Shown here: piece after piece, positions 34,401 through 64,000 of the stretch | Position numbering within the stretch: position 1 is the stretch's first letter | Layout: every line of letters starts with the position of its first letter | From: an uncultured Gammaproteobacteria bacterium | GTDB taxonomy: Bacteria; Patescibacteriota; Microgenomatia; Levybacterales; GWA1-39-11 | Assembly (NCBI GenBank): GCA_964537315.1 | Contig: CAZIAP010000003.1 | Span: 463-64,462 of the forward strand | Length of the DNA stretch: 64,000 nucleotides | Direction of reading: 5' to 3' | Notes under the pieces: generated by a model | Told to the model about the DNA's origin: nothing | Database searches by the model: none | Seen by the model: only the letters and a program-made list of their open reading frames with translations | Position numbers and translations under genes: made by a program

Positions 34401-36782
34401 TATTGATCCTTGAGCAATTGTTGTAAGCCCTGTTCCACCTCTGGTAGGTGAGAGAGTTCCGGTAGTACCTGATCCTATCGGTAGACTAGTTGCATCAGTC
34501 AAATTAAAAGCAGGAGTCGTATCAGATTGTCCTAGCTGCAAGGTAATACCACCGTAATTTACGGTACTGCTTACTAAGGCAGATAGAGAAATTGACCCTG
34601 CAGGGAGTGTAATTGTTCCTCCACTTACCGTTAATCCATTTGAAATATATGCATTTCCCGTAACATCCAATGTTGCGTTTGATGCTGTAGTGTTACCAAT
34701 ACCAAGATTTCCGGTGTTAATAAATGAGTTTTGTCCTGCAGTTCCTGTAAACTTTATGAGTGCGCTACTTGTCGCATTACTTCCTATTAAGAGATCGTCT
34801 GATATATTTAAGGGGGCAACCGTACCTGCGTTGCGCTGCCAAAATGTTAAGCCTGCTCCAGATACGCTTGCCCAGGTTGGAACTCCCCCTGAAACAACCA
34901 ATACTTCATTTACAGAACCTATCGGAAGTTTAGTAAGTGTATTTGATCCAGATGCAAAAAGAATATCTCCGGTGGAGTATGTGGACTGACCTGTTCCACC
35001 TCTTGTTTCATCAACAACACTTTCAACAGCCCATGTTCCGCTTGTAATATATGGCACTCCGTTTGATCCTGATGTATTTAGTCCAGTTCCTCCGTAGGCT
35101 GTTCCAATAGCAGTTGCATTCCATGTGCCTGAGGTAATATTTCCTGACGTGTTAATCTGGAAAGCGTTTGCAGTGCCTGAGGTAAATGTTCCCGAGGTAT
35201 CAAGATTACCAGTAATCCCCACGGTTGAACCGTCATCCGTAATCGATGAATCTCCAATCGATGAACTACCTGTAAATTTTGCAAGCGTATTGGTAGTACC
35301 TGAACCTGAAAGAGCTCCTACTCCAGAAACTGATTGCCATGATAGTACTCCAAGTCCATTAGTAGTCAATACGTAGTTATTGCTTCCGTCATCTAGGGGG
35401 AGAGTATAAGTTGTGCTCTGAGCAAGTGCAGCAGGAGACTGAAATGACACATAATGTGAAGAATCACCATCTGCAAATAATAAGCTGCTTTGGTTCTTTA
35501 GTTGTATGGGAGATGTAAACTCCCAAGTTCCAGAAATAACTTCGTTTTGGTTACTTCGGGTAATTAGCGAGTTGGTATAGTCGATTACAATATTTACCTC
35601 GCCGCTTGGTAGTTCACTGAGGTCAAAATCAGTTCCGCTAAAATCAAGTGTATCAGCAGCATTCGTTAAAAGTAGACCTCCTTCTTTAACGTTTACAACA
35701 CCAGCACTCATACCTCCTACATCAGGCGCACATTCCCATACTTGAGATATATTATCCCATTTCAAAACATCGCCATCGTCACATCCTTGCAAGAGAGATA
35801 GTTGATTAGAACCAGTTCCGGCAAACTCTAAACCTGAATTTGAAGACATACTTCCGATGCCGTCAGAAGAACTTAAAAGATCTATTACGAGCGAGTTTGA
35901 TGCAATATTTAACCCATTTCCGGTTAGGCTAGTAAAAGAATTTCCATCTCCACCTATTTGCAAAGAACCTGAAGCAAGGATATTACCTGATACGACTAAT
36001 TTTTCAGTCGGTGTGCTCGTGCCAATCCCTACATTACCTGTGCTGTTTGTGAGATAAACAGAGTTTGCAGACTCTGTCCAGGGTGAAGAAGTTGCAGTTC
36101 CAGTTATGGTGATTGTTTTTGTACTTGTATTAGTCGAGAGGATAATTCCGTTTCCTGCCGCAAAGGTTATAGTATCTCCTGTACTACCTGCAGAAAAAGA
36201 AGATCCTCCTGCTGTAATAGTAGAAAATATGTTTTGATCGTCTGTGTCAGTTATGGTTGAGGAGATGGTTAAGCCGTCAATTTCGATACCGTCTCCTGCA
36301 CTTAGCGTAATTGCTCCAGTCTGTCCTGCGAGTGACAGAACACCTGTATTCGAAAGAGTAGGAGACTGTCCACCCGTTGAAGCTAGTCCAGCTCCAACTG
36401 ATACAGCATTAATAATATTAGGACCTGTTATCCCAGCTTCAAACACTGCGTCACCTCGTACTACCAGAGCGTCACGATAAAGCGTAGGGAGATTAATTGC
36501 TAATGTTCCTTTAACCTCACTACCATCTGGATTTAGTTCAGGTAAATCAGCAAGGTTTTCTGTAGGCACCTCAGGTTGCTGTCGAGAATTAAGACTTAAA
36601 TACGAAAAGCTAATGAAAACTATGATTAGTATAGCGGTCAAGGGAGCGGCGTATGCCAACATATATTTTCGTATATTGCCTGAGGATTTATTATCGTAAA
36701 CCTTTAGAGGGTTAACTTTTGGCGCAGGAATAGGTATTTCATGTGAAAGCTGATCCTTAATTTGTCCTAAGTTCTTATCCAT
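28431..36782 (-). CDS. giant repetitive cell-surface protein 1 (2783 aa)
   Basis: It has an N-terminal TM anchor 'LAYAAPLTAILIIVFISFSYL'. It is rich in G/T/S/N beta-type repeats ('GNVGIGTTNP..KLSV.G..NITG'; 'LPVANGGTGASSLNNLI'). The C-terminal ~215 aa are identical to giant protein 2. Confidence 0.85.
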   Translation of the reverse strand: MDKNLGQIKDQLSHEIPIPAPKVNPLKVYDNKSSGNIRKYMLAYAAPLTAILIIVFISFSYLSLNSRQQPEVPTENLADLPELNPDGSEVKGTLAINLPTLYRDALVVRGDAVFEAGITGPNIINAVSVGAGLASTGGQSPTLSNTGVLSLAGQTGAITLSAGDGIEIDGLTISSTITDTDDQNIFSTITAGGSSFSAGSTGDTITFAAGNGIILSTNTSTKTITITGTATSSPWTESANSVYLTNSTGNVGIGTSTPTEKLVVSGNILASGSLQIGGDGNSFTSLTGNGLNIASNSLVIDLLSSSDGIGSMSSNSGLEFAGTGSNQLSLLQGCDDGDVLKWDNISQVWECAPDVGGMSAGVVNVKEGGLLLTNAADTLDFSGTDFDLSELPSGEVNIVIDYTNSLITRSNQNEVISGTWEFTSPIQLKNQSSLLFADGDSSHYVSFQSPAALAQSTTYTLPLDDGSNNYVLTTNGLGVLSWQSVSGVGALSGSGTTNTLAKFTGSSSIGDSSITDDGSTVGITGNLDTSGTFTSGTANAFQINTSGNITSGTWNATAIGTAYGGTGLNTSGSNGVPYITSGTWAVESVVDETRGGTGQSTYSTGDILFASGSNTLTKLPIGSVNEVLVVSGGVPTWASVSGAGLTFWQRNAGTVAPLNISDDLLIGSNATSSALIKFTGTAGQNSFINTGNLGIGNTTASNATLDVTGNAYISNGLTVSGGTITLPAGSISLSALVSSTVNYGGITLQLGQSDTTPAFNLTDATSLPIGSGTTGTLSPTRGGTGLTTIAQGSILYASAADVLSALSAGAEGTVLSISSGVPTWQSAAGAGLNYWQRNTGSIAPLNISDDLLIGSNATSSALIRLPGVSNEHGWFASGGNFGIGTMTPSTAKLDVAGSINISTSNSYLINGTAVLSASTLGSGVTNSSLTSTGALSSGSIASGFGIISTTNTITGTTLNATTGLNTGAGAGTVRINSSGNLVNIGTTQLNGVTYTWPGTDAASSGYVLTSNSAGTLSWQEVSGIAGAGDISAVGDVPSGNAFTTGGSGSSLFWHNSGFEGELTVATLTSDQTYTLPDSSGTFCLTSGNCSGTGAGLGGSGTTNFIAKFSGQFAVNDSSIFDNGNVGIGTTNPLHKLSVTGTTNITGAVTLGSTLSTVGNATFGSVTVGSIGLADTGSNNLTSGASLVGVFDEFTNSSATTVQGVLADLDSSISGAAHDPVSLAGSYNYLTLADQVITLNQIDLTTDISGILPVANGGTGASSLNNLIALTTHTTGNYVATITGSSTITSTGATTGEGIAHTLSVTANSIGDNELEFDTGQALTISSSPTFNTLALTSLIISGDTISDFAGSGLQVSGNTLSTTLGTSVDLTSEVTGTLPVGNGGTGVTSLISGSLLYGSGTGVMNTLGIGSNGFVLTSNGSSPVWSDISSLYEAPLTFSNGLTRTSNTITLGGTLTGATNIALNSNNFAFSGTGNVGIGLTNPFHKLSVAGNANVTGTTNLGGLVVQGSTGRALAIFDETSGQNLLVASASGTTRLVVQNSGNLYLNIDGSNTTSPRTISVGGNEYSSGEAARVQLGDQANALQTSNGGKLQLYSYHGIEILGARGETIPPSFVNGTGASDYSLLVQGYNTATNLTAIKGSFGQSGRLLDFLSSTNEVLTHFDESGNLRLGFTAPDTGKLMIHGKDTGKALAIFNETGDQAIFTASASGTTRFVIQNDGNVGIGIANPSHNLSVVGTVNATGATSLDSTLSVAGISTFAANINANGGFDVDDVFVIADGGNLTTSGTSTFNGTLTANGVLNLGDGADAVTIHGSSITLPDFTTDGGLLYTDGSGVLTQLASVGTLNKCLQSNGDGTYKWGDCGGDGTTTNHWDMTNGAVHLVHPFMDVTLGATSTSSALIRLPGTTNQHAWFNLGTGNLGIGTTTPSFKLQVAGDIGPTTNDAYNLGSTGSRWDSLYLAGSLDFNDGSSNFATIGTAIGGLYLNSGSNLVAELGASNGTTGFAVRNGADVNRLLVVDTGNTAIGVNQVATALGGFNVQGSTVGKALTILNETGDQDILTASASGQTKFIIDNVGYVGINGIGGNIFQPASILHLASDTTNSPKITFEEVGSSGFFTLGFAPFTDIAYISTHLRINGTIRPTGGVYREGGSGETTIHYSESGGAAHMFSGGTTATTLSVQAITSQTGNLQEWRNSSGTPLSVVSVNGNIGIGDSTPTEAELVLGPSGAGNVYLTPASSGGGSALCWDNSGASLIYDCDADPVADYMEMYPVAAGTGLGDLVTIGSNTVTTKDGDNIKQLVKTTKPYQSSIIGVVSDKSKAGDFNSIGHNINSVDNPQPIALAGRVPVKVTSENGAIQPGDYITSSSKEGIGMKATRAGFIVGQALESYSNTDPNQVGTVMIFVKGIWYDPAVQIASDGNIQIVEDNGNWLALDDSGDIIDKTGVYSTATIANLKSGKIESEDIFATNLVATSGLFENINASFLSSDSLTINNTLAAGKITTDEIAMSDFKVITGDSKLSIMDKTSTQGALFSVDLSGNAKFAGSVTTPEIIADEGSIETLTVKNLIVENISGLTASSSAFFDLGAGIEADFADFDFATINADLTVLGTTTLREAAITETLAIGAGELVINSNSINTLSDTLEIQPLKQQPVSIMAGAVTFNTDGTVRFTENVEFEKNVAVAGVLTTKTLNVTTDDIIDISPTLSQASASAGVATITAGETIRTIENPHVTENSLIYVTPVSDTFGESPFIFEQRSEASSQSASFTVKIKKTVEEDIRFNFLIIN
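28775..29428. repeat. ~655-bp near-identical segment shared with 37757-38411
   Basis: About 570 bp are identical ('gtgaatctaacagtaccgtcagtgttgaaagtaacagccccagccat...cttgcctgatttga'). A few mismatches occur near the 5' edge. Confidence 0.85.
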
Positions 36783-37374: not shown

Positions 37375-40300
37375 TTAGTTGACTATTAGGAAGTTAAATC
37401 TAATATCTTGGTTTACAACATTTTCTATTTCAACTGTAAAGTGCTGTCCTGCTACTTGATTCTTGAGATATACTTGCTGGCCACCTGTTGATCCTACAGG
37501 TGTAATAAAGATTAATGAGTCTTCGGTTACATTATCGTTATTTACCCGTACCTGTGTTTGATAAGCTTTGAGTGTGACAAGTCCTGCTGATCCTGAGGCA
37601 TTCACAGTCGTATTATTAACTACTTCTGGTGCTGTGGCTTCAACTCCAATTCTTTCAAAGTTAGCTGACCCTGATACGTTCAGTACATCATTTACACCTT
37701 TGATTACACTGGTTACGAGTTCTCCTTCAACAGAGACATTTTTTTCAAAGGCGACATTTTCAGTGAATCTAACAGTACCGTCAGTGTTGAAAGTAACAGC
37801 CCCAGCCATAATTGAGACAGGTTGTTGCTTGAGAGGTTGAATCTCAAGCGTATCTGACAGAGTATTGATAGAGTTTGAGTTAATGACAAGTTCACCTGCA
37901 CCGATAGCAAGGGTTTCTGTAATGGCCGCTTCTCGAAGGGTAGTGGTACCCAGAACTGTTAAGTCTGCATTAATGGTTGCAAAATCAAAGTCTGCAAAAT
38001 CAGCCTCAATACCTGCACCTAGGTCAAAGAAAGCACTACTTGAGGCAGTCAGACCAGAGATATTCTCAACGATAAGGTTTTTAACTGTCAAGGTTTCTAT
38101 ACTTCCTTCATCAGCAATAATCTCAGGAGTGGTTACCGAACCTGCAAACTTTGCATTACCTGACAAGTCTACCGAGAAGAGAGCTCCTTGAGTTGATGTT
38201 TTATCCATGATTGAGAGCTTAGAATCACCAGTAATTACCTTAAAGTCAGACATGGCAATTTCATCAGTCGTAATTTTACCTGCAGCAAGCGTATTGTTGA
38301 TAGTTAGACTATCGCTAGACAAGAATGAAGCATTAATATTTTCAAATAGTCCTGATGTGGCTACCAGGTTTGTAGCAAAGATATCTTCACTCTCTATCTT
38401 GCCTGATTTGATATTTGCAGCAAATAGATCAGCATATGCTTTGCTGTCTTGCGCTATATCTCCGTTGTCGTTTATGACTAGCCAGTCATTTCCATTCTGA
38501 GCAATCTGAAGTTCGCCATTTGCGGCAAACTGAATATTAGGATCATGCCAACCAGGGTTCAAATAAACTTTAATTGTTCCGCAAACAGCATCAGTAGATT
38601 CACTTGCTGGACAGACGTGAGTATTTCCAATGCCGGTTGATGGATTAAAGTCAGATAATGCACGACCTACTATTTCACCTGCATTTATTGCTTTGGCCCC
38701 ATATCCTCGTATTTGTGATGCAGTAATTGGATCCCCAGCTTTAATTGGTCCATTTATATTACTTACTTTTACCGGTAATTGTCCGGTAAGACCAACTAGT
38801 ACGTTGGTTAGTTCATAATTCGAGTCACAATTGAGGTCCTCTGAATCGCAGACAGGTCCATTTCCAACGAACCCAGGAGTATCAGATACAATACCTACAA
38901 TTGCGTTTGAACCATTTGCGCTTCTAACTGTATTGCTTTTGGTTGAGTCAACCATGACAATTTCACCAACTGTTGGTTTTGGTTCAAGTTGGTTAAATAG
39001 GAAGTACTCTGCATAATCTCCACCTGAAGTCGAGTAAACAACCGCGTTAGTTGCTCCTTGAATTTTTCCGGTTATGGTTGTTCCACCTGAGCTTCCTCCG
39101 AATGAGATTAAGTAATTATTAGCTCCCCATCCAGCAGTGCCTCTTCCATTAGAAACGAGTATTCCTCTACTAGTGGTGCCTGTGTTTGTATTATGAAATT
39201 GCGCAACATATTGAGTGGTTGTAGAAAATGATGCCTCAACGTGCAGCTGTCTTCCTGTCGGTAGAATAGAAGCTCCTATTGCGACAGGTTCAAGAAGGAA
39301 AATGCTGCTTGAATTTACTGTCATTCTCGTCGCTCCTGCTGCAGAAAAGACCATGCCGTTTCCGGAAGATCGAGAAATTCCGGTGTTTGATCCAGATGAA
39401 AAGCTGAGACCTGGTAGAGAAGATGTTCCATCTGCAGCGAATATTCGCCTATTTGAATCAATTACTGTGGTTCCTCCAGATTGGAGGCTGCCTGATACAA
39501 TGTTGAATGAATCGCCTGACGCAAGCGCCAGTGTATTTACGCCTGATCTGTAAAGTTCAACATCGGTGCCAAATCCTATACCGCCTGCGGCAGTTGTGTG
39601 ACTAGCAAGCTCAAGTATATGCCCAGGTGCTGTTGTGCCGATTCCAAGGTTGCCAACTCCGGTAAGTCTCATATTCTCTACAGCACCACCGGACTCAAAA
39701 ATAAGATCGTTTGCTGAGTTACTGCCAAATCCTGCACGAGTTCCTTTACTATCAGGTTCAAAAAATCCTATCATAAAATCACGATTTATACGCATATCGC
39801 CTTCGACGTGTAGTTTATACTGCGGAACATTGGTTCCAATTCCGATATTCCCTCCACTATTAATAAAGAGTGAATTCGTTGAGGCTCCTTCTTCAATACT
39901 GAATGGACCAGTAGCGTTGCTGATATCCCAAAAGCCGATAGTTCCGTTTGTATTGGTAAAGAGCGACCATTGATTTGTGCTACTTCCGTCTTCTAACCAT
40001 AGCTCAGTATTTCCTGATCCAGATTTCAGGTGTAGTTTTCCTCCAGGGGAAGTTGTGCCAATACCAACGTTACCTGATGTGGGGTTGAGAATAAGGTTAG
40101 CAGCTGCGTTGATGGTTAAGTCACCTGATGAGTTACCAATTGTTGAGTTTGTTCCACCAACCGAAAGTCTAGCAGTAGGGTTGGTTGTGCCGATACCAAG
40201 ATTACCGCTTGTTGTGAGAGATAGTAATGGGTTAAGAGATCCAGCATGTCCATTGAGGCCGATAAAGAAGTTATCGTTTGCTGTGTTGATTCCCAGTGCA

Positions 40301-43300
40301 TAATCAAGGTTTGTGCTACATCCATCGCCGGAAGTACATTGTACGTGTAATGAGTCAGGACCAAGATATAGATTCCTCCATCGGGCAGATCCCGAAGCAC
40401 CCAAATCGTAGGTATCGTCTGCTCCAGGCAGGAAGTGACCACCAACATTAAAGAATGCTCTTTGAACCCCTGCAGTAGCAAAATTTAAAGTATCTGACCC
40501 GTCTCCATAGATACCGGTATTAGTGTCAGATGAGAATGAAAATGCCGGTGTTGCGGCGCTACCATTTGCGGCAGTAAATAATCTGTCTGATGTTATAGTG
40601 TTGACTCCACCCATTTGAAGAGAACCGGAGACAATATTTAATGAATCACCTGATGCAAGCGCCAGTGTATTAGAGCCTGATCTATACAGTTCAACATCAG
40701 TACCAAATGCTATACCGCCTGCAGCAGTTGTGTGATCAGCCAATTCAAGTCTGTGGGTAGCAGCAGTTGTACCGATTCCAATATTTCCAGTAGATCCGTT
40801 AACAAAGAAATTGCCTGACCCAAAGTTAATATTATTGCTCCCCATTGATACATTCCAGTCAGCATCTAATGTCATGGTATCTGCAAGTTCTGAAAAATCC
40901 AGACAGTCTGTACAGCTGAAATCGCTTGCAGTTAGTGTGCCTCCTGTCAACTCAAGTCCTGCTTGAGTGCCAATTGTAAGTTTTCCATCACTATCAACGG
41001 TAAATGACGCGTATTTACTTGCATCTGTGTGAGTTAGTCGAAGCTGTTCTGATGTTGATAATATTTCAGTCTTTGCATCAGGAGTGGTCGTACCCATACC
41101 GATATTACCTGCTGAGTTAATAAGTAGCCTTACGCTGCCATTACCGAACGGATCAGCGTCATCAGAAGCAGATGTGTAGAAGAAGAGATCAGTTGGTACG
41201 TTATTTGAAGATACGGCACCGTTTACCAAAGCACCAAAGCCTGCATTATGTCTATACACTCCACCTTCGTAGTTCTTAAAGAAGAATATTCCGTTATAGT
41301 CGCCGTTTTGGACACTTGCAGGAGAGGTAAGTGTACCTCTGCTTTTTCTGAAATTGAATTGAGCAGCATGAGCAGCATTGCTGTGCTGGTCTAAACTGAT
41401 ACCTCTATTCCCGGAAGTACCGTCTGTAGTGACATGCAGCTGAGCGACAGGAGCTGTTGTGCCAATACCTACTTGACCGAGTGAGGTATCTACGTATAGT
41501 TGGTTAGTGTTGATAGCAAAATCTCCGGCACCTGATAAGTTAATATTTAGGTTATTGCCTGCGTTTGGAGTAATTGAAAGAGCTCCGGACGAAGTAAGCG
41601 CATTGCCTGAAAGATTAAGTGTTCCTGCAATATCATTTGACGTACCATTAAAGTCAATATTTCCTCCTACAGTTAATGTACTATCAAAACTTACTGATCC
41701 GTTTACACCAAGAGTAGAGCCAAGTGTTGTTGCACCTGTTATATTTGTTGTTCCAGCGACCGAAAGTTTGTGTGATGGGTTAGTAATTCCAATACCAAGA
41801 TTTCCTGTTCCAAGGTTAAAGAAGGCATCTTGATTAGTAACGCCCGGTAGTTTGATAGTTGCACTTGATGTAGCTGTGCTCCCTATAAGTACATCAAGTG
41901 TAGTATTAGTCAAGTGCAGTGCGCCATTTGACTGATCCCACCAATTCGTAAATGTTCCTTCACCGCCGCAGTCTCCCCAGGTGTATGTGCCATCACCATT
42001 TGATCGAAGACACTCATCAACACCGCCTGTTGTAGCAAGCTGAGTAAGTACTCCGGAGCCATCAGTGTAGAGTAGACCCCCATTGGTAGTAAAGTCAGGA
42101 AGAGTAATAGATGAGCCATGGATTGTGATGGCATCTGCACCATCACCTAAATTGAGTGCACCATTTGCAGTCAACGTACCATTAAAGGTTGAAGTACCAC
42201 TAGTAGTAAGATTTCCCCCATCTGCAATTACAAATACATCATCTACATCAAACCCACCATTTGCATTGATGTTGGCTGCAAATGTAGAAATTCCGTCTAC
42301 TTGAAGGGTAGACCCTAGTGTAGCTGCACCTGAGATGTTGGTTGCGCCGTTAACATTGAGTTTATATGATCCTGGAGAAGTTGTGCCGATTCCAAAGTTG
42401 CCAGCAGCGTCAACAACCGACAACGCATTGCCTGAAGCATCTTGCCACTCTTGTAAGTTGTGAGTTTGAGATGTGTGACCTTGTAAGGCAAGAATTAATG
42501 AGCTGTTTTGATCATTTCGTACTCTGAGGGATGCATCTGAAGCTCCACTTCCGGAAACAAATGTAGGGCTATTTGTGTTGCCTCTTGCTCCGATAATTTC
42601 AATTCCATGGTAACCGTAGATTTGTGTACTTCCTCCGTATAGGCTTTGGAATCCATTGTAAGGATCCCCGAACTGTACTCTAACTGCTTCACCGGATGAC
42701 AAGTTGTAAAATCCTATTGCACGTGGCGCACTAGTTGTGCTTCCATCCGTATTAATTCCCATGTCACCTGCCACGGTAAGCGTACTTCCAATTGTTGTTA
42801 ATCCTGTTATATTTGTTGTTCCATCTACTGAAAGTTTGTGAGACGGATTGGTAATTCCGATACCTACGTTGCCAGCAAAATAACCGCTACCATCGTAGCC
42901 TACATTAAAGACCTCAGTTCCGTCACTTTGTACGCCGCTGAATAAGTCTGCACCTGCACCCCCACCTTTTGCGCGAAGTACAGCTTCAAATGCAGCCGAA
43001 GCACCTGCGTCGGTGGTAAATTCATGCGCACCAAATGCACCCCCTCCAAGGCCTCCCCGCACACTATATCCAAGTCTTTTATTCGCTATATCATATTTTA
43101 TTAAACTGCCTGAGTTATCTCCTATATTTAAATCTCCAATTTGGATTCCGGTGGTACCAGGCCCAGTATTAGAAATTACAAGTGACTTTTTATTTGTAAC
43201 GTTACCTTGGTCTATAGTTACACTTCCTGCTACGTGGAGCTTGTTGCTTGGAGCAGTTGTCCCAATTCCTACATTTCCTGTTCCACTTATATTGAAATCA

Positions 43301-46300
43301 AACCCACCATTTGCAATAGTAGTGTTTTCGGTTAAGGTACCACCGAGTCCAATGGTATTAGTTGATCTAGTTAGTCCGTTATTGAAGGTAAGAGGAACTT
43401 CGTAATCTGTTCCAGCTTCAAGAGGTAATTGATAGTCAGTACCGGCAACAGCGTTTGAAAGAACACCGCTTGCATCAGACATCACCAATCCAGAACCAAG
43501 TCCTGAGACAGTAAGTCCAGCAAAGGTTGGAGTAGAAGCTGTAGTTAAGTGTTGTCCAGTGTTGAATGCAAGTTGAGCATCACCAATAGAGTCTGCGTTG
43601 ATAGCAAGGGTAATTCCAGCATTTTCGCTTCCAGAACCAGTTACACTGATTTGGGTGTTACCTGTAATGGTAGCCACATAGTTACCTGTGGTGTGTTGTC
43701 CAAGAGCGATCAGATCGTTTAGAGTAGTAGCTCCGGTACCACCATTAGCTATAGGCAAGATTCCGCTCACATCAGCTGCAAGGTCAATTGCAGTTAATGT
43801 GATCTCCTGATCGGAGAGGGTTAGATAATCATAACTCCCTGCTAAAGTAACTGGATTATGAGAAGCTACTGTGATAGCTGTATCAAGATCTGCTAATACT
43901 CCTTGGACAGTTGTTGCGGAGCTGTTAGTAAATTCGTCAAACACACCCACCAATGATGCACCGCTGGTTATATTTGATACCCCCACATCTTCAAGGCCAA
44001 TTGTACCTAATGTTAGAGATCCGAATGTCACACCAGAAGCTGTAGTTAAGTGTTGTCCGGTATTATATTCAAGTTGAGCATCACCAATAGAGTTTGCGTT
44101 GATTGCAAGCGTGATTCCTGCGTTTTCACTTCCTGAGCCTGATACACTGATTTGAGTATTACCTGTAATGGTAGCCACATAGTTACCTGTGGTGTGTTGT
44201 CCAAGGGTAATTAGATCATTAAGCGTGTTGGCTCCGGTACCGCCATTGGCAACAGGAAGAATTCCTGTGACTTCAGATGTAAGGTCAATATCTGTTCCTA
44301 AGGTTGTAGAAAGAGATGATCCTGAAAGGGTAAGTCCCGTACCTGTGAAGTCAGTTATTGTATCTCCTCCTACATTGATTCCATTGCTAAATGTTGCAAG
44401 ACCAGTAACGCCAAGTGTTGATCCAAGTGATGTTGCACCAGTTGCATTAACTGTTCCAACTACTGATAAATTATGTGCAGGGTTGGTAATACCAATTCCT
44501 ACATTTCCGTCATTTTGTATTACAAAACGAGTAGTGCCTGATGCGCTTGCGGTGAGAATGGCTTGATCTCCTGTTTCATTAAATATCGCCAGTGCTTTAC
44601 CTGGAACATAGCCATTCACGTTAAACGCACCAAGATTTGTCATCGGAGCGGCTTGATTTACTCCAAGAGAAAAATGTCCCATGTCTCCGACTATTAAACG
44701 ATTGGTTGACGAGCTATTTCTGACAAAGAAGCCAGTTGTGCCTGATGCTCCTCCTAAATGGTTTATGATACTAGTATTTGCATTTAATATTAGTCCGGAA
44801 AGCGTCATTTCCATGTGTCCTGAAGATACTCCGTCATGAAAGTCTATTCTATCTGTAAGATATAGGGAATTCCATCGTCCTCCTGTACTGCCTAAATCAT
44901 ATACAGCGTCAGTTGCAGGACCAATATCTCCTTCTACTTGCAATCTAAATGCAGTTGGAGTAGAAATTCCGATACCCACATTGCCAGTACCAGAGAAGGT
45001 AAAGTTGTTACCGTCGAGATCAAGGTCTGTACTGCTTGTGAGTGTACCACCGAGTCCGATTGAGTTAGTTGATCGAGTTAGTCCATTACCGAAAGTAAGA
45101 GGAACTTCGTAATCTGTTCCAGCCTCAAGTGGTAACTGGTAGTCAGTACCGGCAACAGCATTAGAAAGAACTCCATTTGCATCAGACTTAACAAGACCTG
45201 TGGAGAGACCTGATACAGTAAGTCCAGCAAAGGTTGGAGTAGAAGCTGTAGTTAAGTGTTGTCCAGTGTTGAATGCAAGTTGAGCATCACCAATAGAGTC
45301 TGCGTTGATAGCAAGGGTAATTCCAGCATTTTCGCTTCCAGAACCAGTTACACTGATTTGGGTGTTACCTGTAATGGTAGCCACATAATTACCAGTGGTA
45401 TGAGTACCAAGAGTAATCAGATCGTTTAGAGTAGTAGCTCCCGTACCGCCATTGGCAACAGGAAGAATTCCTGATACGTCAGTTGCAAGATCAATTGCGT
45501 TTAAAGTAATTTGTTGACCAGATAGCGTAAGGTAATCATAGCTACCTGCAAGCGTTACGGGGTCATGACTTGCACCTGAAATCGCTGAGTCTAAATCAGC
45601 TAGAGCTTGTTGAACAGTGGTAGCATCTGAATTGGTAAACTCATCATATACACCGATTAGTGACGCACCTGAGGTGATATTTGAAGCACCTGCATCTTCT
45701 AATCCAACACTACCAAGAGTAAGTGATCCGAAAGTTACGTCTGAGGAGGTTGCAATACTCTGAGGAAGAGAAAGAGTAATATTACCGGTTGCGCCAGAAA
45801 CAGAGACCTGGTTTGCAGTGCCTGCAAGAGAGAGTACTCCTGAGTTAGCAATAGTAGTACCTGTGATAGTAATACCTGCACCTTCTGCAAGGGTAATGTT
45901 GCCTGTTGCACCTTGGAAGGAGAGAACACCTGTGTTTGTAATCGTGTTTCCTGTTCGGTTTAATCCGGTTGAGAAAGTAAGCGGCACTTCATAGTCTGTA
46001 CCAGCCTCAAGTGGTAACTGGTAGTCAGTACCAGCAACAGCAACTGCCAGTTCACCTGTAGGAGAGATAGCTTTCACTAGTCCTCCAGCGTTTAGACCAG
46101 AGAGAGTCATACCTGAAAAAGTAGGAGTAGATGTAGTTGCAATACTTTGTGGTAGAGACAGGGTAATATCTCCACCTATAACTCTACCAGTACCACCAGT
46201 AACCGATATCTGATCAGCAGTACCGATTACATCTGAGAGCGATGTGACGCCTGTTCCACCGCTTGCAACAGGTAGAGTTCCTTCAACTTCAGATTCCAGG

Positions 46301-49300
46301 TCAACCGTTGTACCAAGAGTGGTAGAAATAACTCCACCTGTGATTTTTAGACCATTACCCACAAAGTCAGTAATGGTATCACCGTTAATGGAGAGAGTGG
46401 TTAAGGTAAGACCACTAAATGTTGGAGATGATACTGTAGTTAAGTGTTGACCTGTATCAAAAGTAAGTTGATCATTACCTATTGAGTTGGCAGCGATTGA
46501 TAATGTAACCAATGCATTTTCAGTACCGGAGTTTCCAACAGTAATTTGATCATTTCCAGTGATAGTTGCGACATAGTTACCTGTAGTGTGAGTTGCGAGT
46601 TGGATTAGATCATTTAGAGTATTTGCACCAGTTCCACCATTAGCAACAGGCAGAATACCCGTAACATCAGTAGTTAGGTCGATTGCATTCAATGTGATCT
46701 GTTGATCAGATAATGTTAGGTAGTCATAGCTTCCTGCCAAGGTGACTGGACTGTGTTCTGCTCCAGTGATCGCAGCATCAAAGTCAGCAAGCACATCTTG
46801 GACGTTAGTAGAGGATGAATGAGTGAACTCATCATATACACCAATGAGTGAAGCTCCGCTTGTGATATTTGAAGTACCAATATCTTCTAATCCAATACTA
46901 CCAAGAGTAAGTGATCCAAATGTTACATCTGCAGCTGAATCAATATTCTGAGGTAGAGAAAGAGTGATGCTGCCAGTTGCACCAGAGACAGACACTTGGT
47001 TTGCAGTTCCTGCAAGGGATAGTACTCCTGAGTTGGCAATGGTGGTACCGGTAATAGTGATTCCTGCACCTTCTGCAAGCGTAACGTTACCTGTTGCACC
47101 TTGGAAGGAGAGAACACCTGTGTTTGTAATCGTGTTTCCTGTTCGGTTTAATCCGGTTGAGAAGGTAAGCGGGACTTCGTAATCGGTTCCAGCAACAGCG
47201 TTTGAGAGAACACCATTTGCATCAGACTTAACAAGACCTGTAGACAGACCTGAAATAGTTAGTCCTGCAAAAGTAGGGGAAGAGATAGTGGTTAAGTGTT
47301 GACCCGTATCGAAGGCAAGCTGGTCGTTACCAATAGAGTTTGCATTGATTGCAAGAGTGATTCCTGCGTTTTCACTACCTGAACCAGTCACACTGATCTG
47401 AGTATTACCTGTAATGGTAGCCACATAGTTACCTGTAGTGTGAGTTGCGAGTTGGATTAGATCATTTAGAGTATTTGCACCAGTTCCACCATTAGCAACA
47501 GGCAGAATACCCGTAACATCAGTAGTTAGGTCGATTGCATTCAATGTGATCTGTTGATCAGATAATGTTAGGTAGTCATAGCTTCCTGCCAAGGTGACTG
47601 GACTGTGTTCTGCTCCAGTGATCGCAGCATCAAAGTCAGCAAGCACGCTTTGGATTGTGGTTGCATTAGAATGGGTAAATTCGTCAAATATACCTACTAA
47701 TGATGCACCGCTGGTGATGTTTGACACACCTACGTCTTCAAGGCCGATACTTCCAATAGACAACGAGGAAACAGATAGGTTAGCAAAGGTGACATCTGAC
47801 GTTGTAGTCAAATGTTGACCTGTATCAAAGGCAAGCTGGTCGTTACCAATAGAGTTTGCATTGATTGCAAGCGTGATTCCTGCGTTTTCACTTCCTGAGC
47901 CTGTCACACTGATCTGAGTATTACCTGTAATGGTTGCCACATAGTTACCTGTGGTGTGTTGTCCAAGGGTAATCAAGTTATCAAGAGTATTTGCTCCGGT
48001 ACCACCATTTGCAACAGGAAGGATCCCGGTTACTTCAGATGTAAGGTCAACATCTGTTCCCAGGGTTGTTGAAAGAACACCGATATTTAATTGTAATCCA
48101 GTTCCAACAAAGTCAGTAATAGAATCATCGTTTATTGTTATACCTGCGAATGTTGGAGTGGCTGCAGTATGAATATCTTGAGGCAGGGAAAGAGTAACAT
48201 TGCCAGTTGCACCAGATACATTTACCTGATTCACTGTGCCAGTGAGGGATGTTACGCCTGTATTACTGATAGTTGTGCCGGTAATATCGATTCCTGTTCC
48301 AGCAGTTAGCGTCACATCTCCGGTTTGACCTTGGAAAGAGAGAACGCCATCATTATTAATAGATATTGTTGAGCCAAGGGTAACTGTACCTCCGCCAGAT
48401 AGACCTGTTCCAGCAGATATGGTAACTGAGTCGTTAGCAAGCTCAAGATTATCGATTTGACCTGCTGGTAGTGAAATAGTTCCAGTTGTTATGGTAAGTC
48501 CGTCTGTGCCTCGAATTCCACCCGAAACGTCAAGTTTGAATCCATTTGTTGGAGTAGTTGTTCCGATTCCGACATTACCGTTATCAAAGATACTGGAGCT
48601 GCCAATTGCGCCAGTATCGGTAAACTTAGCAACAAAATTTGTTGTGCCAGCACCTGTAATTCCTCCACCTACACCTGCACAGTTGCCGCTGGTATCACAA
48701 ATTGTGCGGTCACCCCAGTAGAGGAATCCGCTTGGTGCGCCTGAAGCCTGAGAGGTATTCAAAATATTATTTGCATTACTGTCTGTGCCAAGTCTTATCC
48801 CACCCGCGACATCTAAAGCACTTACAGGATTTGAAGTGCCGATTCCTACGTTCCCTGCATTATTAAAGAGAATATCACCTGTTTCGTTCGTTCCGAAATT
48901 TAGGTTTTGCATAGCGGTTGTGGCAAGTGTGCCATCAGCAGTGAGATATGATGCCCCCGCAAGTCCAGCTGAGACACTAGCTGTTGGCGTACCACTGTTT
49001 GAGTTAATAAATGCAAAATTTGCTGACTCAGTTGATGACCCTCCAATGAAGAAATCAAGTGTGGTATTGATAGGATAAATTGCTCCATTTTTGAGACTCC
49101 AGAACTGAGTTGTAGCGGTTCCGATGTCAATCCATGAAAGACCACCTGATCCGTTTGACGATAAGACATATCCGCTTACACCGGCATCAGCGCCTGGCCA
49201 GGTATATGATACTCCACCAAATGTAGTAGTGCCATCAACAGTAAGATCTCCATTTGCCTGGATGTCTCCTGATGTATTGATGGTTACGCCTGTTGACCCA

Positions 49301-52300
49301 TATCCTCCGGCAAGGTTAATTGTAGCTGTTCCACCTAGATTTAGAGTGGTAACATCACTGTTCAAGAGATTAAATGTGGATGCAGTTGAAGTGAGATTTC
49401 CTCCATTAATAGCTGCGTTTCCTGAAAGAGTTAGACCGGTAAATTCAGGTGATGAAGTTGTTGCTATATCTTGGATGGTATTGATAACTCCAGATGCAGC
49501 AGAGAAATTGGTGCTATTGAATGCTGCTATACCTTTTGTTGTACCGTCTGCAGTAGCATCTGCAATAGTGATTGTTCCTCCTGCCTCACTTGCATTGGCC
49601 AAAGTAAGTACGCCTGTTGCACCATTAAGTGATAGTAGACCTGTGTTTGTTATAGTTGTTCCAGTAATATCTATACCATCACCTGGAGTTAGAGTGACAT
49701 CTCCTGTTAATGATTGGAACGATGTAACACCCGTATTGTTAAGTGTTATTGTTCCGCCAAGTGCTACTGTTCCTCCACCTGATAGACCTGTTCCAGCTGT
49801 CACAGTGATGGAATCATTTTCAAGTTCAGAATTTCCGATTGTTTGTCCGAGTAGAGATACTTCACCAGAGCGGTCAGGGAAGGTAATGGTACGGGTAGCA
49901 GTAGGATCAGTAATGGCAAAGACAGTTTGGAATCCATTCGCAGTAGTACCTTCAAATACAAGTGGAGAGGCACTTGCAAGGACTGTGCCAGTCAAATCCA
50001 TAGTGCCTGTAAAGACATAGTTACCATTTCCTGTATCTCCCGTATTAAGTAAATATATATCGTCAATCGATACTGCCCCTGCAGCTACAGAGAAGTACGC
50101 GTCATTAAATGAAGCAATACCTTTATTCGTAGTACTTGCGTCTTCACCAGCAATAGTGATAGAACCATCACCATTTGTGATGCTAATTCCTTCGCCTGGA
50201 GTGAGATTTGCAAGATCAAAATTTCCATTTGTACCATTACCAATGAGTAATTGACCTGCAGTAACAGTTGAGGCATTGAGTCCTGTACCGCCATGGGTAG
50301 CAGGAAGAATTCCTGTAACCTCAGATGCCAAATCTATATCTGTGCCTAAAGTGGTTGAGATAACACCACCTGAGATCTGTAATCCAGTACCTACAAAGTC
50401 TGTTATAGTATCTCCATTAACTGCTATACCGCTGCTAAATGTTGCAAGTCCAGAAACCGCAAGAGTGGAGCCAAGTGTGGCGTCACCCGTTATATTCGTT
50501 GTTCCTGCAACTTCCAGGAGGTAATTTGGAGTTGTTGTTCCAATACCAATATTACCGTTATCAAAGATAGATGAGTCACCCACTGATCCAGAGCTGCTGA
50601 ATTTAGCAATATAATTTTGAGTTCCTGATCCGGTTAAACCGCCGCCTGTGCCTGCGCAGTTACCAGTTGTATCACAGATTTGGCGGTTTCCCCAATAGAG
50701 GTACCCGCTTGGAGCAGTAGCTGTAGCAGTTGTATTTAATATATTGTCAGGGTCGTTATCGTCGCCTAAGCGGATTCCGCCCTGAACATCCAGTTTGCTG
50801 CCAGGTGCTGTTGTTCCTATTCCTAGATTGCCTCCGGTATTAAAGAATGAATCAGTATTTGCAGTTCCACCAAACCGAATAAGTGCTGAGTTTGTTGCAC
50901 TTCCGCCAATGAGCAGATCATCACTCACATTTATGGAAGATAGAGCGCCTTGTGCATATTGCCAGTAGTTAGTTCCAACAGCAGATGAATTTATCCAAGA
51001 TGGGGCGCCTGCGCCGCCTGAGATTAGTACTTGTCCTGCAATACCTGCAGCTGATGCACCGATCGGACTGGTTCCGGTACCATACAGTATTCCACCTGCA
51101 GTAAATGAGGTAGCGCCAGTTCCACCGCTTGCAACAGGTAGAGTTCCTTCAACTTCAGATTCCAGATCAACCGTTGTGCCAAGAGTGGTAGAGATAACTC
51201 CACCTGAGATTTGAAGACCTGTACCCACAAAGTCAGAGATAGTATCACCGTTAATGGAGAGGGTAGTTAGGGTAAGTCCACTAAAGGTTGGAGAAGACAC
51301 TGAAGTCAATGCCTGACCTGTATCAAACTCTAATTGATCATTACCAATAGAGTTTGCATTGATTGCAAGAGTGATAGCTGCGTTTTCACTACCTGAACCA
51401 GTCACACTGATCTGAGTATTACCTGTAATGGTAGCCACATAGTTACCTGTAGTGTGAGTTGCGAGTTGGATTAGATCATTTAGAGTATTTGCACCAGTTC
51501 CACCGCTTGCTATAGGTAGGATTCCTGTCACCTCGGTTGTAAGATCAATTGTTTGTCCGAGAAGAGATACTTCACCAGAGCGGTCAGGGAAGGTAATGGT
51601 ACGGGTAGCAGTAGGATCAGTAATGGTAAAAGCAGTTTGGAACCCATCTGCCGTAGTACCTTCAAATATGAGTGGAGATGCGCCAGTAAGAATTGTTCCT
51701 GTCAAATCCATAGTGCCTGTAAAGACATAGTTACCATTTCCTGTATCTCCCGTGTTAAGCAGGAAGACGTCATCAACACTCAATGTATCGTCAGTTAAAG
51801 TTAGGTTTGTACCTGCAGTAAGGTTTGTATCGTCAGAAATATCGACTTGGCCAAGTGTAATTACTTGGTTGTTCAGCGTGAGGTAATTATAGCTACCAGC
51901 AAGGGTAACAGGGTCATGAGTAACACTTGTAAGGGTAGCATCCAAGTCTGCAAGGACTTGTTGTACAGTTACTCCAGATGAATTAGAGAACTCATCATAC
52001 ACACCAACAAGAGACGCACCTGAGGTGATATTTGAAGTACCTACATCTTCAAGGCCAATCGTGCCTAATGTTAAAGATCCGAATGTTACGTTAGATGTTG
52101 TTGCAATATCTTGTGGTAGGGAAATAGTAATGTTTCCGGTTGCACCAGAGACACTCACCTGATTTGCAGTGCCTGCAAGAGAGAGTACTCCTGAGTTAGC
52201 AATAGTAGTACCTGTGATAGTAATACCTGCACCTTCTGCAAGGGTAATGTTGCCTGTTGCACCTTGGAAGGAGAGAACACCTGTGTTTGTAATCGTGTTT

Positions 52301-55300
52301 CCTGTTCGGTTTAATCCGGTTGAGAAAGTAAGCGGCACTTCATAGTCTGTACCAGCCTCAAGTGGTAACTGGTAGTCAGTACCAGCAACAGCAACTGCCA
52401 GTTCACCGGTAGGAGCTATAGCTTTAACTAGCCCCCCAGCGTTTAGACCAGAGAGAGTTATACCTGAAAAAGTAGGAGTAGATGTAATCGCAATATTTTG
52501 TGGTAGAGACAGGGTAATATCTCCGCCTATAACTCTACCAGTACCACCAGTAACCGATATCTGATCAGCAGTACCGATTACGTCTGAGAGCGATGTGACA
52601 CCCGTACCACCACTTGCAACAGGTAGAGTACCTTCAACTTCAGATTCCAGGTCAACCGTTGTACCAAGAGTGGTAGAGATAACTCCACCTGAGATTTGAA
52701 GACCTGTACCCACAAAGTCAGAGATTGTGTCGCCATTCACCGTAAGTGTTGTGAGTGTTAAGGCACTAAATGTTGGACTAGAGGTAGTGGTTAGGTGTTG
52801 TCCAGTATCAAACTCTAACTGATCGTTACCAATTGAGTTAGCATTTATTGCAAGAGTAATACCTGCATTTTCACTCCCTGATCCTGTCACACCAATCTGA
52901 GTGTTGCCTGTAATGGTTGCCACATAGTTACCGGTGGTGTGAGTAGCGAGTTGGATCAGATCATTTAGAGTATTTGCACCAGTTCCACCGCTTGCTATAG
53001 GTAGGATTCCGGTTACGTCTGTAGTCAGATCAATAGCATTCAAAGTTATCTCTTGATCAGATAATGTTAGGTAATCATATGCTCCTGCTAATGTTACTGG
53101 ATCGTGTGAGGCTCCTGTGATGGATGCATCAAGATCTTTCAAAACTCCCTGAACAGTGGTTGCAGAGCTATTGGCAAACTCATCATACACACCAACAAGA
53201 GACGCACCTGAGGTGATATTTGAAGTACCTACATCTTCAAGGCCAATCGTGCCTAATGTTAAAGATCCGAATGTTACATCTGCAGCTGTATCTATATTTT
53301 GAGGTAGAGAAAGAGTAATATTACCAGTTGCGCCAGAAACAGAGACCTGGTTTGCAGTTCCTGCAAGGGAAAGTACTCCTGAGTTAGCAATGGTGGTACC
53401 TGTGATAGTAATTCCTGCACCTTCTGCAAGGGTAATGTTGCCTGTTGCACCTTGGAAGGAGAGAACACCTGTGTTTGTAATCGTGTTTCCTGTTCGGTTT
53501 AATCCGGTTGAGAAAGTAAGCGGCACTTCATAGTCTGTACCAGCCTCAAGTGGTAACTGGTAGTCAGTACCAGCAACAGCAACTGCCAGTTCACCTGTAG
53601 GAGAGATAGCTTTCACTAGTCCTCCAGCGTTTAGACCAGAGAGAGTCATACCTGAAAAAGTAGGAGTAGATGTAGTTGCAATACTTTGTGGTAGAGACAG
53701 GGTAATATCTCCGCCAATAACACGTCCAGTACCACCACTTACTGAGATTTGATTTGCTGTACCAACTACATCAGACAGGGAAGTAACTCCAGTACCACCG
53801 CTACCAACAGGAAGTATTCCTTCAACTTCAGATTCCAGATCAACCGTTGTGCCAAGAGTGGTAGAGATAACTCCACCTGTAATTTGAAGACCTGTACCCA
53901 CAAAATCTGTAATAGTATCACCATTGATACTAAGAGTAGAAAGAGTTAGAGCTGAGAAAGTAGGAGTAGAGGTGGTGGTCAAGTGCTGACCCGTATCAAA
54001 CTCTAATTGATCGTTGCCAATTGAGTTGGCATTAATAGATAAGGTAACTAACGCATTCTCTGTACCTGAGTTTCCAACAGTGATTTGGTCACTGCCTGTA
54101 ATGGTTGCCACATAATTACCTGTGGTGTGAGTTGCAAGCTGGATCAGATCATTTAGAGTATTTGCGCCAGTTCCACCATTAGCTACTGGTAAGATTCCGG
54201 TCACGTCAGTGGCAAGATCAATTGCGTTAAGGGTAATTTGTTGATCTGATAAACTAAGATAGTTGTATGCTCCTGCTAATGTTACTGGATCGTGTGAAGC
54301 ACCTGTTATAGAAGCATCAAGATCTTTCAAAACTCCCTGAACAGTGGTTGCAGAGCTATTGGCAAACTCATCATATACACCAATGAGTGAAGCTCCTGAA
54401 TTAAGGTTTGAAGTACCTGCATCTGCAAGACCGATACTTCCAATAGATAATGAGGAAACAGATAGATTAGCAAAGGTCACATCTGACGTTGTAGTCAAAT
54501 GTTGTCCTGTATCAAAAGCAAGTTGGTCGTTACCAATAGAGTTTGCGTTGATGGCAAGAGTAACAAGTGCATTTTCAGAACCTGAGTTTCCAACTGTAAT
54601 CTGATCGTTTCCGGTGATTGTGGCAACATAATTACCGGTTGTGTGTTGCCCAAGAGCTATTAAGTTATCAAGAGTTATTGAACCGGTACCACCACTTGAA
54701 ACAGGGAGAACTCCCGTGACTTCAGAGGTTAAGTCTATGGATTGTCCTAGTAGAGATACCTCTCCACTTACATCAGGAAAGGTGTATGTTCTGTCAGATG
54801 AAAGATCGTCAACATCAAATATACCAAAATATGTATCTCCAACAGACTCAAGAATTCGTAGAGTTGAAGCTGAGTTATTTAATACGATGTCAAAGGCTCC
54901 TGTTTGGTTCCAGTCTTCGGTGAGTGAGCCTAAAGCAATAGTACCATCTTCTGTGATTGGTCCGCCTGTAAGTCCGCTTCCAGTATTGATTTGAGTAACT
55001 GTACCGCCTGAATTAGTGTCAACGGAGGAAATGGTTATTGTGTTGTTAGCGCCAAAGGAGACTGAGGTTCCACCACTTCCTGCAAACCGTATCGAGTCAC
55101 TATTGGAAGTTGCTGAAAACTGAGTAGTACCTGATGCGTTTGCAATATCTTTGAAAATGTTCTGACTTGAACCTTTATCAGTATTTACAACTGAGTCATC
55201 AATTCTACTCAGTCCATCACTGAAAGTAAGAGGAACTTCATAGTCAGTGCCTGCAGTAGCAATAGACAGCTGTCCCGTTGAGTCTATTGCCTTAACTAGA

Positions 55301-58239: not shown

Positions 58240-58512
58240 GATAAAAGGTATTGATGATCTTTTAGTGCATTTCTGCTTTAAATATCTATGCTTTGATCAA
58301 CCAATACCTATATATTTATTGAACCATTGTTTTCACAAAAGTGTCAAGTATACAAATAGATGAATGAGCATGTTTTGTACACACTTCGAGGCTGAGGAGG
58401 AATGTAAGAAAACTGATCTGGTGACAATTGTTGCATAGATCAACAAAAAAATAAAAATGTGTATTTTAAATCACTAAATTTTAGCGTGAAAATCAACCAA
58501 AATATTGTATGA

Positions 58513-59439
<927 letters not shown>

Positions 59440-59451
59440 AGACTGTTATTT

Positions 59452-60342: not shown

Positions 60343-60374
60343 TTGTTTTACTAAATTGAAAGAAAAACATTACT

Positions 60375-60866: not shown

Positions 60867-60896
60867 TATCTTGTCCTTACCTATTACAAAATTTAT

Positions 60897-62471: not shown

Positions 62472-62474
62472 ACT

Positions 62475-63395: not shown

Positions 63396-64000
<605 letters not shown>

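Follow-up and report, generated by a model that had tools for sequence, protein, structure and literature searches.

Introduction

Ultra-small episymbiotic bacteria must locate and hold their host cells, and the attachment machinery that they use besides type IV pili is poorly known. Among phages, the phi29 gp12 appendage and endosialidase-type fibres form trimers whose assembly is nucleated by a C-terminal chaperone. For Vampirococcus, which belongs to the candidate phyla radiation (CPR), giant membrane proteins have been proposed as a fibrous host-contact surface (PMC8080830), and giant genes are also known from Omnitrophota (10.1101/2023.11.21.568195) and Apilactobacillus (Giant1-5; PMC12863079). 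Here, we analyse a giant gene, g2 (‘giant protein 2’), that lies in a stretch of 64,000 nucleotides (nt) from contig CAZIAP010000003.1 of GenBank assembly GCA_964537315.1 (‘the window’, in whose coordinates all positions are given). The gene occupies 37375–58239 on the minus strand, keeps its reading frame open throughout 20,865 nt, and encodes 6,954 amino acids (aa). An original prediction had drawn attention to positions 43300–54700, which fall wholly within g2 (aa ~1180–4980), as a series of near-identical ~1.2-kb super-repeats reminiscent of phage tail fibres.

In our view, g2 is likely to be a chromosomally encoded fibre of 6,954 aa on the surface of a bacterium, probably a member of Patescibacteria/CPR, with this region as its central shaft. 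The super-repeat copies are ancient duplications that have been maintained by purifying selection, and they have been locally homogenized through gene conversion, which has also acted between g2 and a paralogous giant, g1. By sequence similarity, g2 belongs to a large uncurated family of giant proteins and is linked to families of phage tail fibres. There is precedent for giant surface proteins with repeats, for phage-fibre-like modules in proteins of bacteria, and for gene conversion between repeats. New are a set of modules (here called alpha, beta, gamma, and delta) without a curated family, their 396-aa arrangement, and the combination of a DNA-binding head, a transmembrane (TM) segment, a tail-fibre-like shaft, and a Peptidase_G2 chaperone. 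In the literature, we located no paper describing this module set or proteins that join a helix-turn-helix (HTH) head, a TM segment, and a fibre.

Comparison with described systems

Phage fibres with C-terminal chaperones (phi29 gp12 with Peptidase_G2; endosialidase with Peptidase_S74) resemble g2 in that the latter has a Peptidase_G2 match above the cut-off and an (A/G)DYAEY motif. The likeness to phi29-type appendages may extend to structure, in that a poor model of the g2 C-terminus (mean predicted local distance difference test [pLDDT] score 48) matches a ‘preneck appendage’ in BFVD but nothing in PDB at E<=1e-3. With phage tail fibres at large, g2 shares a repetitive shaft rich in G, T, S, and N, parts of which match PHROG tail-fibre families directly and the 396-aa unit of which does so transitively. 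However, g2 is chromosomal, with no phage genes among the neighbours scanned; an HTH-HTH-TM anchor replaces the virion-attachment domain; the protein is several times longer than typical tail fibres; and ~490 residues follow its Peptidase_G2 core.

Like the giants of Vampirococcus lugosii (1,392–4,163 aa; PMC8080830), g2 is very large, membrane-anchored, and predicted to be extracellular, and comes from a probable CPR genome. Relatives of g2 in metagenome-assembled genomes (MAGs) of Patescibacteria, Paceibacterota, Kaiserbacteria, and Moraniibacteriota add to its likeness to CPR giant proteins. In contrast, the WD40, PKD, integrin, fibronectin, and DUF11 domains of the Vampirococcus giants (PMC8080830) are all missing from g2. 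In their place are uncurated tail-fibre-like modules, between a head of the DNA-binding type and a C-terminal chaperone like those of phages. The Omnitrophota and Apilactobacillus giants (10.1101/2023.11.21.568195; PMC12863079) are likewise products of multi-kilobase genes with internal super-repeats, extracellular, presumed to act in cell–cell interaction, and recovered in fragmented assemblies, but they carry dockerin, thrombospondin, TPR, and enzymatic domains, and no sequence relationship between them and g2 was detected.

The N-terminal order of g2 (HTH, a single TM segment, and an extracytoplasmic part) recalls membrane-tethered regulators such as ToxR and CadC. The HTHs of g2, however, are tandem and of the MerR/excisionase type rather than winged and OmpR-like, and the outside part would be a fibre of 6.7 thousand aa rather than a sensor domain. 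Although these HTHs score as MerR/HTH_17, they differ from MerR-family regulators in having no dimerization coil or effector domain, and their DNA binding is putative.

Predicted layout of the g2 protein

From its N-terminus, g2 is predicted to consist of two cytoplasmic MerR-type HTH domains, one TM helix, ~6,700 extracellular residues, a Peptidase_G2-type domain, and a small beta-sandwich tip. K and R residues precede the TM segment, from which the positive-inside rule predicts an N-in orientation; g2 would thus be an N-in/C-out membrane anchor. The predicted extracellular part is rich in G, T, S, N, and A and nearly free of K, R, and C (in the repeat region, G+T+S+N+A amount to 56%, K+R to 1.1%, and C to 0.1%). 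Opposite the giant genes are long open reading frames (ORFs) of 159–298 aa (49124–50020, 33805–34284, and 28696–29208, all on the plus strand), which are most likely by-products of biased repeat composition and not genes.

The Peptidase_G2 core, of a type that acts as an intramolecular chaperone with autoproteolytic cleavage, is located at 38860–39117 (minus strand; aa ~6375–6460). When a C-terminal piece of 1,154 aa is searched, its match to PF11962 reaches 31.4 bits, above the cut-off of 25. Its GGDYAEYF motif (aa ~6405–6412) is kept as ADYAEY in homologues, in which the pattern G..PV.VS.ENG.I..GD.IT.S is also conserved, and one homologue (P0285) is annotated with PF11962. The residues beyond the core include a conserved terminal domain. 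A C-terminal beta-sandwich tip domain of ~70 aa lies at 37378–37590 (minus strand). It is modelled by AlphaFold2 (AF2) with pLDDT 75–91, scores 21.7 bits, below the cut-off, with K1-lyase_C, and finishes with ...DIRFNFLIVN, a terminus conserved in homologues.

When the AF2 model of the C-terminal region was compared with BFVD by Foldseek, twenty-five matches at E<=1e-3 were obtained. They include Campylobacter phage tail fibres and, at E 1.8e-8 to 1e-5, a ‘Preneck appendage protein’ as the top match (E 1.8e-8, TM-score [target] 0.58) and proteins with K1-lyase_C domains. Matches of the same model in PDB at E 0.003–0.3 (a pyocin fibre tip, Helix pomatia agglutinin, CBM3, and capsid decoration proteins) are hints only, and H_lectin matches in homologues were not significant. 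A polymorphic-toxin reading was rejected: the C-terminus is conserved in paralogues and homologues and is without a toxin domain. As regards g2 as a possible target of a diversity-generating retroelement, Mtd_N has no match in g2 and turned up in one short homologue only (P0022); none of the window ORFs that were scanned encodes a reverse transcriptase.

The 396-aa super-repeat

The predicted ~1.2-kb period is real. Self-BLAST and a diagonal scan gave DNA diagonals at offset 1188 (51989–53241 versus 53177–54429, 85.6%; 45365–46005 versus 46553–47193, 79%) and a protein diagonal at offset 396 spanning aa 1241–2143 and aa 3653–4354 of g2. The unit of 1,188 nt (396 aa) is present in three complete and three partial copies, arranged in two arrays (51811–54501 and 45160–47283) with about 2.3 and 1.8 units in tandem, respectively. 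Tandem Repeats Finder reported nothing in the region because the period exceeds its 500-nt limit, and blastp of g2 against itself returned the identity match only.

All units lie on the minus strand. Array I begins with the full units U1 (53314–54501; aa 1247–1642) and U2 (52126–53313; aa 1643–2038), the latter with its modules in the order delta-alpha-beta-gamma, and ends with a partial copy, U3p, that holds the delta module only (51811–52125; aa 2039–2143). Array II starts with U0p, the gamma end of a unit, 10 aa short (46963–47283; aa 3653–3759), continues with the full unit U4 (45775–46962; aa 3760–4155), and ends with U5p, a delta-alpha partial (45160–45774; aa 4156–4360). The remainder of 43300–54700, beyond the three complete units, is a mosaic of sub-modules, and such sub-modules recur in g2 from aa ~645 to ~5015, as found by phmmer with U2 against g2 and by hidden Markov models (HMMs) of the modules. 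They include, again on the minus strand, an alpha sub-module upstream of array I (54442–55011; aa 1077–1266; phmmer), an alpha-delta-alpha series directly upstream of array II (47203–48054; aa 3396–3679; both methods), and an alpha-delta-alpha-gamma series outside the arrays (43195–44292; aa 4650–5015; both methods).

The delta module reads ...SGASLVGVYDEF..TVQxVLxDLD..HDPVTLAG..YLTLSDQxITLNAIDL and the alpha module TDVTGILPxAxGGTGANTLNDLI..THTTGNYVATITG...DTGQHLTTTSxPTFS, with LPxxNGGTG...TGNYVATITG as the short form of the alpha basal repeat. The beta module (..TDFVGTGL...LPVxSGGTGVTSLSDV.GTAxQISV.GGTGRVIGGDITLSLPQ..TSTPTFS) is a divergent homologue of alpha (local alignment z = 8.8). The gamma module (AGTDY...GVLSFQGATGNITL...GVLSLAGTANQVSVSGATGNITLSLPQ; short form of its basal repeat GTANQVSV...ITLSLPQ) carries an internal duplication. 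The architecture is therefore hierarchical, with basal repeats of 60–95 aa making up the 396-aa super-repeat and super-repeats making up arrays.

Each unit had been thought to contain the same three peptide motifs. All three motifs are present in g2, but not in every unit: LPVANGGTGANTLNDLIQLATHTTGNYVATITG occurs three times, EFDTGQHLTTTS.PTFS twice, and the 57-aa motif GVLSFQG...SLPQ twice exactly and four times if three positions are treated as wildcards.

Divergence, selection, and gene conversion among units

The three full units are not near-identical. Pairwise identity among U1, U2, and U4 is 81–84% at the nucleotide and 87–90% at the amino-acid level, and the units differ at 16–19% of sites, mostly synonymously. 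Over the first 270 codons, the pairwise number of synonymous substitutions per synonymous site (dS) is 0.84–1.38, close to saturation, and the ratio of nonsynonymous to synonymous divergence (dN/dS) is 0.11–0.15; over the last 126 codons, dS falls to 0.07–0.20. Tandem copies with dS of ~1 and dN/dS in this range are old, selected duplicates.

Superimposed on this divergence are exact tracts. The longest within the gene measures 299 nt and joins the gamma/late-beta parts of U1 and U4 (53414–53712 = 45875–46173, minus strand); 0 of 20,000 shuffles reached this length, the largest shuffled run being 74 nt. A tract of 245 nt joins U2 and U4 (52163–52407 = 45812–46056, minus strand), and one of 182 nt joins U2 and U1 (52226–52407 = 53414–53595). 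In 20,000 rounds in which the differences were shuffled, site-wise or codon-wise, no identical run was longer than 100 nt. Within these tracts of 182–299 nt lie the 22-mer and the 76-mer to which attention had been drawn, the latter inside the 245-nt tract; both are exact at 45981, 52332, and 53520, with 0 expected from shuffles. Of the places at which close variants of the 76-mer had been announced, two hold copies at 78% (43392) and 82% (45099), and the third (~47130) yields only a gapped or adjacent copy.

The closest pair of units also changes along the unit: U2 and U4 over nt 1–99, U1 and U2 over nt 100–198, and U1 and U4 over nt 397–495 and 793–990. Exact tracts beyond all shuffles, together with this changing nearest neighbour, establish gene conversion within g2. 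Dispersed alpha modules are likewise joined by exact tracts of 224 nt (46571–46794 = 47423–47646), 173 nt (43508–43680 = 45215–45387), and 127 nt, and a further exact repeat of 62 nt lies at 54314–54375 and 53126–53187.

Conversion extends to the paralogue g1, which encodes 2,783 aa just downstream of g2 (28431–36782, minus strand) and has an N-terminal TM helix and one delta-alpha module (32526–33341). The two genes share 676 bp at 98% near their C-termini (28753–29428 = 37736–38411), including an exact tract of 553 nt with the Peptidase_G2 region on one side and the terminal domain on the other. In the putative tip (the last ~110 aa), g1 and g2 are only ~45% identical, which suggests inter-paralogue conversion that spares the tip. 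The shaft would thus have evolved by old duplications, purifying selection, and patches of conversion both within the gene and between paralogues.

The copy number of the units had been expected to be hypervariable, as it would be at a contingency locus, where slippage or unequal recombination would rapidly add and remove units and thereby vary antigenicity or length within populations. The conversion tracts do record ongoing recombination between copies, and related giants each have a super-repeat period of their own (P0148, P0224, and P0200/P0222), so that repeat architecture turns over on evolutionary time scales. The adjacent U1 and U2, however, have a dS of about 1.0 outside the converted tract, from which it follows that there was no recent expansion; the arrays hold only the few tandem units given above; and a second copy of the locus turned up in neither of two metagenome scans. 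Hypervariability is not supported by tandem copies of this age under purifying selection, and we regard a contingency locus as unlikely. These results make it less safe to infer instability from long internal repeats.

Reliability of the assembly

Errors in the assembly of this locus had also been feared. The number or order of units, or even the entire 21-kb ORF, could be the product of short reads wrongly joined across repeats, and several observations are of the kind that such an artefact would leave. The exact repeats of 182–299 nt in g2 and of 553 nt between g1 and g2 are longer than usual k-mer sizes. A contig from an independent public assembly of the same organism (Logan SRR7082976_24905; L064; 13,015 bp) stops at 54367, inside the 62-nt exact repeat at the edge of array I. 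The closest relatives in public MAGs are on contigs of 1.4–3.6 kb, two of three of which end in repeats. Finally, the exact 6,954-aa g2 protein is missing from a collection of 15 billion proteins in which g1 and neighbours are present; an NCBI contig 154,264 bp long encodes g1, Rho, and ATP synthase alpha in exactly the form seen here.

Nevertheless, collapse or duplication in assembly would leave identical copies, not units that differ, mostly at synonymous sites, to the extent seen here, and the frame is open from end to end. The Logan contig is 100% identical to 54367–64000 of the window, that is, wherever the two assemblies overlap, and its end is normal small-k behaviour at an exact repeat and contradicts nothing. 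Because it breaks where a small-k graph is expected to break, the locus appears hard to assemble rather than this contig wrong. It is plausible that the locus is error-prone to assemble, but an artefact as the source of the repeats or of the ORF is improbable.

Homologues of the unit

A word-indexed protein search with aa 1350–1745 as the query unit returned 192 matches. An exhaustive search of 1.84 billion representatives with U2 returned 1,011 at E<=1e-3, 228 at E<=1e-10, and 29 at E<=1e-30, with many proteins of 2,000–6,147 aa among them and g1 as one of them (P0147). Short homologues align chiefly to positions ~50–160 and ~210–300 of U2 as tandem repeats of 65–95 aa. Other giants build super-repeats of their own from the same modules: 272 aa repeated ~10 times and then 180 aa repeated ~10 times in P0148, 151 aa five times in P0224, ~330 aa three times in P0200 and P0222, and ~390–400 aa in P0146. 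Super-repeat formation seems to be a trait of the family in general, within which the 396-aa delta-alpha-beta-gamma order was found in g2 only, among the giant homologues examined. The alpha/beta/gamma/delta vocabulary, common to ~1,000 protein clusters, could yield profile models with which to annotate ‘hypothetical’ giants.

Relatives with giant ORFs of 2,444–3,528 aa are present in MAGs of the Patescibacteria group, Paceibacterota, and related lineages, and some end in a Peptidase_S74-type chaperone sequence. The closest relatives in the genome collection are on the three short contigs mentioned above (L001–L003; 43–79% aa and ~70–77% nt identity), which terminate inside the matched repeats in two cases. 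They belong to a MAG labelled as uncultured Gammaproteobacteria (CAYVAJ01), a label under which mis-binned pieces of a patescibacterial giant gene may be hidden. Scans of genome, viral, and metagenome contigs with U2 and an exact 34-mer scan found no orthologous full-length locus.

Relationship to phage tail fibres

The suggestion that the repeats are of the phage tail-fibre type finds support in homology but none in the fold prediction, which was uninformative. Within the regions that align to U2, short homologues match the PHROG tail-fibre families phrog_5481, 11393, 1591, 12321, and 31660, and some of these proteins carry Mtd_N, Peptidase_S74, DUF5907, or the Ig domain of tip-attachment protein J. 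A profile of the alpha module matched at least fifty-three viral contigs in IMG/VR, and five of the eight alpha-carrying viral ORFs that were checked match PHROG tail or tail-fibre families. In g2 itself, aa 2647–2826 and 5619–6310 match phrog_31660, 38058, 9942, and 18345 directly, all of them ‘tail fiber protein’; the segment at 50059–50301 (minus strand; aa 2647–2727), for example, matches phrog_31660 with E 1.2e-6. The best PDB profile match of the unit, the PRD1 P5 spike (E about 2), was rejected as insignificant.

Given tail-fibre PHROG matches, a Peptidase_G2 domain, phage-like C-terminal folds, and an IS200-like transposase near g1, g2 might be thought a virion component, namely, the tail-fibre gene of a prophage or of a phage-derived particle. 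That origin is very improbable. The flanks encode Rho, ATP synthase, rRNA, glycosyltransferases, and surface proteins, and none of the neighbours scanned is a phage structural gene, be it for a capsid, portal, terminase, or tail; the N-terminal HTH and TM anchor is conserved in homologues; and a search of IMG/VR with the complete unit U2 yielded no relative.

Many giant bacterial surface proteins are monomeric beads-on-a-string adhesins of the RTX, Bap, or Ig-repeat type, and genes near g2 encode surface proteins with He_PIG Ig and DUF11 domains. If g2 were built in this way, its modules would be independent beta-sandwiches and its likeness to tail fibres compositional only. Yet neither Pfam nor NCBIfam detects a family of Ig-like, cadherin, or BIg repeats or of C-terminal RTX/T1SS signals in g2 or g1, nor does Pfam match any other family of adhesin repeats to g2. 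Homologues, moreover, bear Peptidase_S74 and Peptidase_G2, chaperone domains typical of phage fibres that are trimers. From an alignment of sixty sequences, AF2 gave the unit no compact domain, whereas beta-sandwich repeats of a compact kind can usually be modelled with success; this speaks against a monomeric adhesin by inference only. We therefore attach a low probability to a monomeric adhesin.

A cell-surface fibre with the super-repeats as its shaft accounts best for these observations, and several results weigh against it. The unit itself has no direct match in Pfam, NCBIfam, PHROG, or PDB by sequence and profile searches; when U1 and U2 (with U3p) were queried by themselves, PHROGs and Pfam returned 0 families at E<=0.05; and among 50,697 GenBank phages there was one weak match only. 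The link between the unit and tail fibres is therefore transitive. The AF2 monomer model of U2, based on sixty aligned rows taken from internal copies and homologues, reached pLDDT 58 and pTM 0.29 with only two short helices, both in delta, and Foldseek with this low-confidence model found 0 matches. At the C-terminus, Peptidase_G2 falls below threshold (22.9 bits) when a piece of 3,454 aa is searched. The AF2 model of aa 6330–6954 (625 aa), which has the low mean score given above, rises to pLDDT 70–80 in the G2-like domain only, besides the last ~70 aa, and has no PDB match at E<=1e-3. Trimerization, cleavage, surface exposure, and host binding are properties that we infer for g2 by analogy, and placement in Patescibacteria, though probable, is based on relatives and context rather than on a marker-gene tree. 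As for the models, chains that take up their fold only when intertwined in oligomers often give low-confidence AF2 output, and that obtained for the unit speaks neither for nor against a fibre.

Proposed role of the super-repeats

By analogy with the phi29 gp12 appendage and endosialidase-type fibres, three g2 chains would trimerize from the C-terminus, with the chaperone as nucleus, and the repeat units would form an extended rod. Scaled from the long tail fibre of phage T4, each 396-aa unit would add roughly 20 nm. Because the units would form such a rod, the super-repeats would set the reach of a fibre for attachment to host or prey, the specificity of which would reside in the divergent tip. 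Most likely, the units serve as a shaft that sets the length of a trimeric fibre for attachment, a role that fits the fibrous surface proposed for Vampirococcus (PMC8080830). If this is true, such a bacterium spends ~29 kb on two paralogous fibres made of phage-tail-fibre building blocks and a phage-type C-terminal folding domain.

The N-terminal head

The most unusual feature of g2 is its recurrent head of tandem HTH domains and a TM segment. The two HTHs, predicted to be cytoplasmic, are encoded at 57910–58209 (minus strand; aa ~11–58 and ~63–110) and match MerR (PF00376; 75 bits), MerR_1 (PF13411; 62.5 bits), and HTH_17 (53.1 bits), each in two stretches, as well as an NCBIfam excisionase domain. 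The MerR_1 match covers only the first ~47 of 69 profile positions, and the HTHs are followed by a low-complexity linker and then the TM helix, with no MerR dimerization coiled coil or effector region. The single hydrophobic segment, read from the sequence as PAVISALLLFVITASAATYITY, is encoded at 57514–57579 (minus strand; aa ~221–242).

Judged by sequence, the head is conserved among homologues. It is present, in two HTH flavours, on giant homologues (P0135, P0142, P0179, and P0243; P0155, P0159, and P0173) and also on P0124, P0126, and P0177. In addition, we found small proteins in which two HTHs and a TM segment are joined to an extracellular SH3 domain (SH3_3) and fragments in which they are joined to fibre modules. 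A DNA-binding head conserved on an extracellular fibre is the feature of greatest value for follow-up.

The fibre could conceivably be a contact-sensing device, in which the activity or release of a membrane-tethered HTH is coupled, in the manner of ToxR or Notch, to the engagement of a host cell by the outer 6.7 thousand aa, with the super-repeats setting the sensing distance. We hold this idea to be doubtful as a whole, though the recurrence of the head on unrelated-looking giants and SH3 paralogues mildly favours some coupling.

Genomic context

The DNA of the window is cellular: it includes the 3' part of a gene for 23S rRNA, a 5S rRNA gene, and genes for Rho, a LysM-M23 peptidase, ATP synthase delta, alpha, and gamma, glycosyltransferases, and Ig/DUF11 surface proteins; the 23S and 5S rRNA, Rho, and ATP synthase genes occur within 20 kb. 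GC content is 36–48%, and there are no tRNA genes in the window. The organism is probably of the ultra-small Patescibacteria/CPR type.

Three further observations concern other parts of the window. The 23S rRNA match at 1–911 is 911 nt long and covers model positions 2407–2925 only (519 positions), which implies an insertion of ~390 nt in the 3' domain; no intron family reached the gathering threshold in this region. Insertions of this type have been reported for CPR rRNA genes. An ORF for an IS200-like Y1 transposase (26027–26686; Y1_Tnp, 28.6 bits) lies ~1.7 kb past the 3' end of g1 and adjoins a 526-aa ORF without a family and a 733-aa TPR protein. Finally, positions 12000–20000 have a higher GC content (0.45–0.48, against ~0.38 in the flanks) and contain, besides minus-strand ORFs that match nothing in Pfam, one protein with a He_PIG Ig domain and one with DUF11. 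Repeats within this block (15034–15485 versus 16788–17236, 81%; 13973–14100 versus 16528–16654, 96%; 13903–14104 versus 14769–14971, 83%; and a 102-nt tandem repeat at 17366–17578) accompany these genes, and the block is possibly a cluster of surface-protein paralogues.

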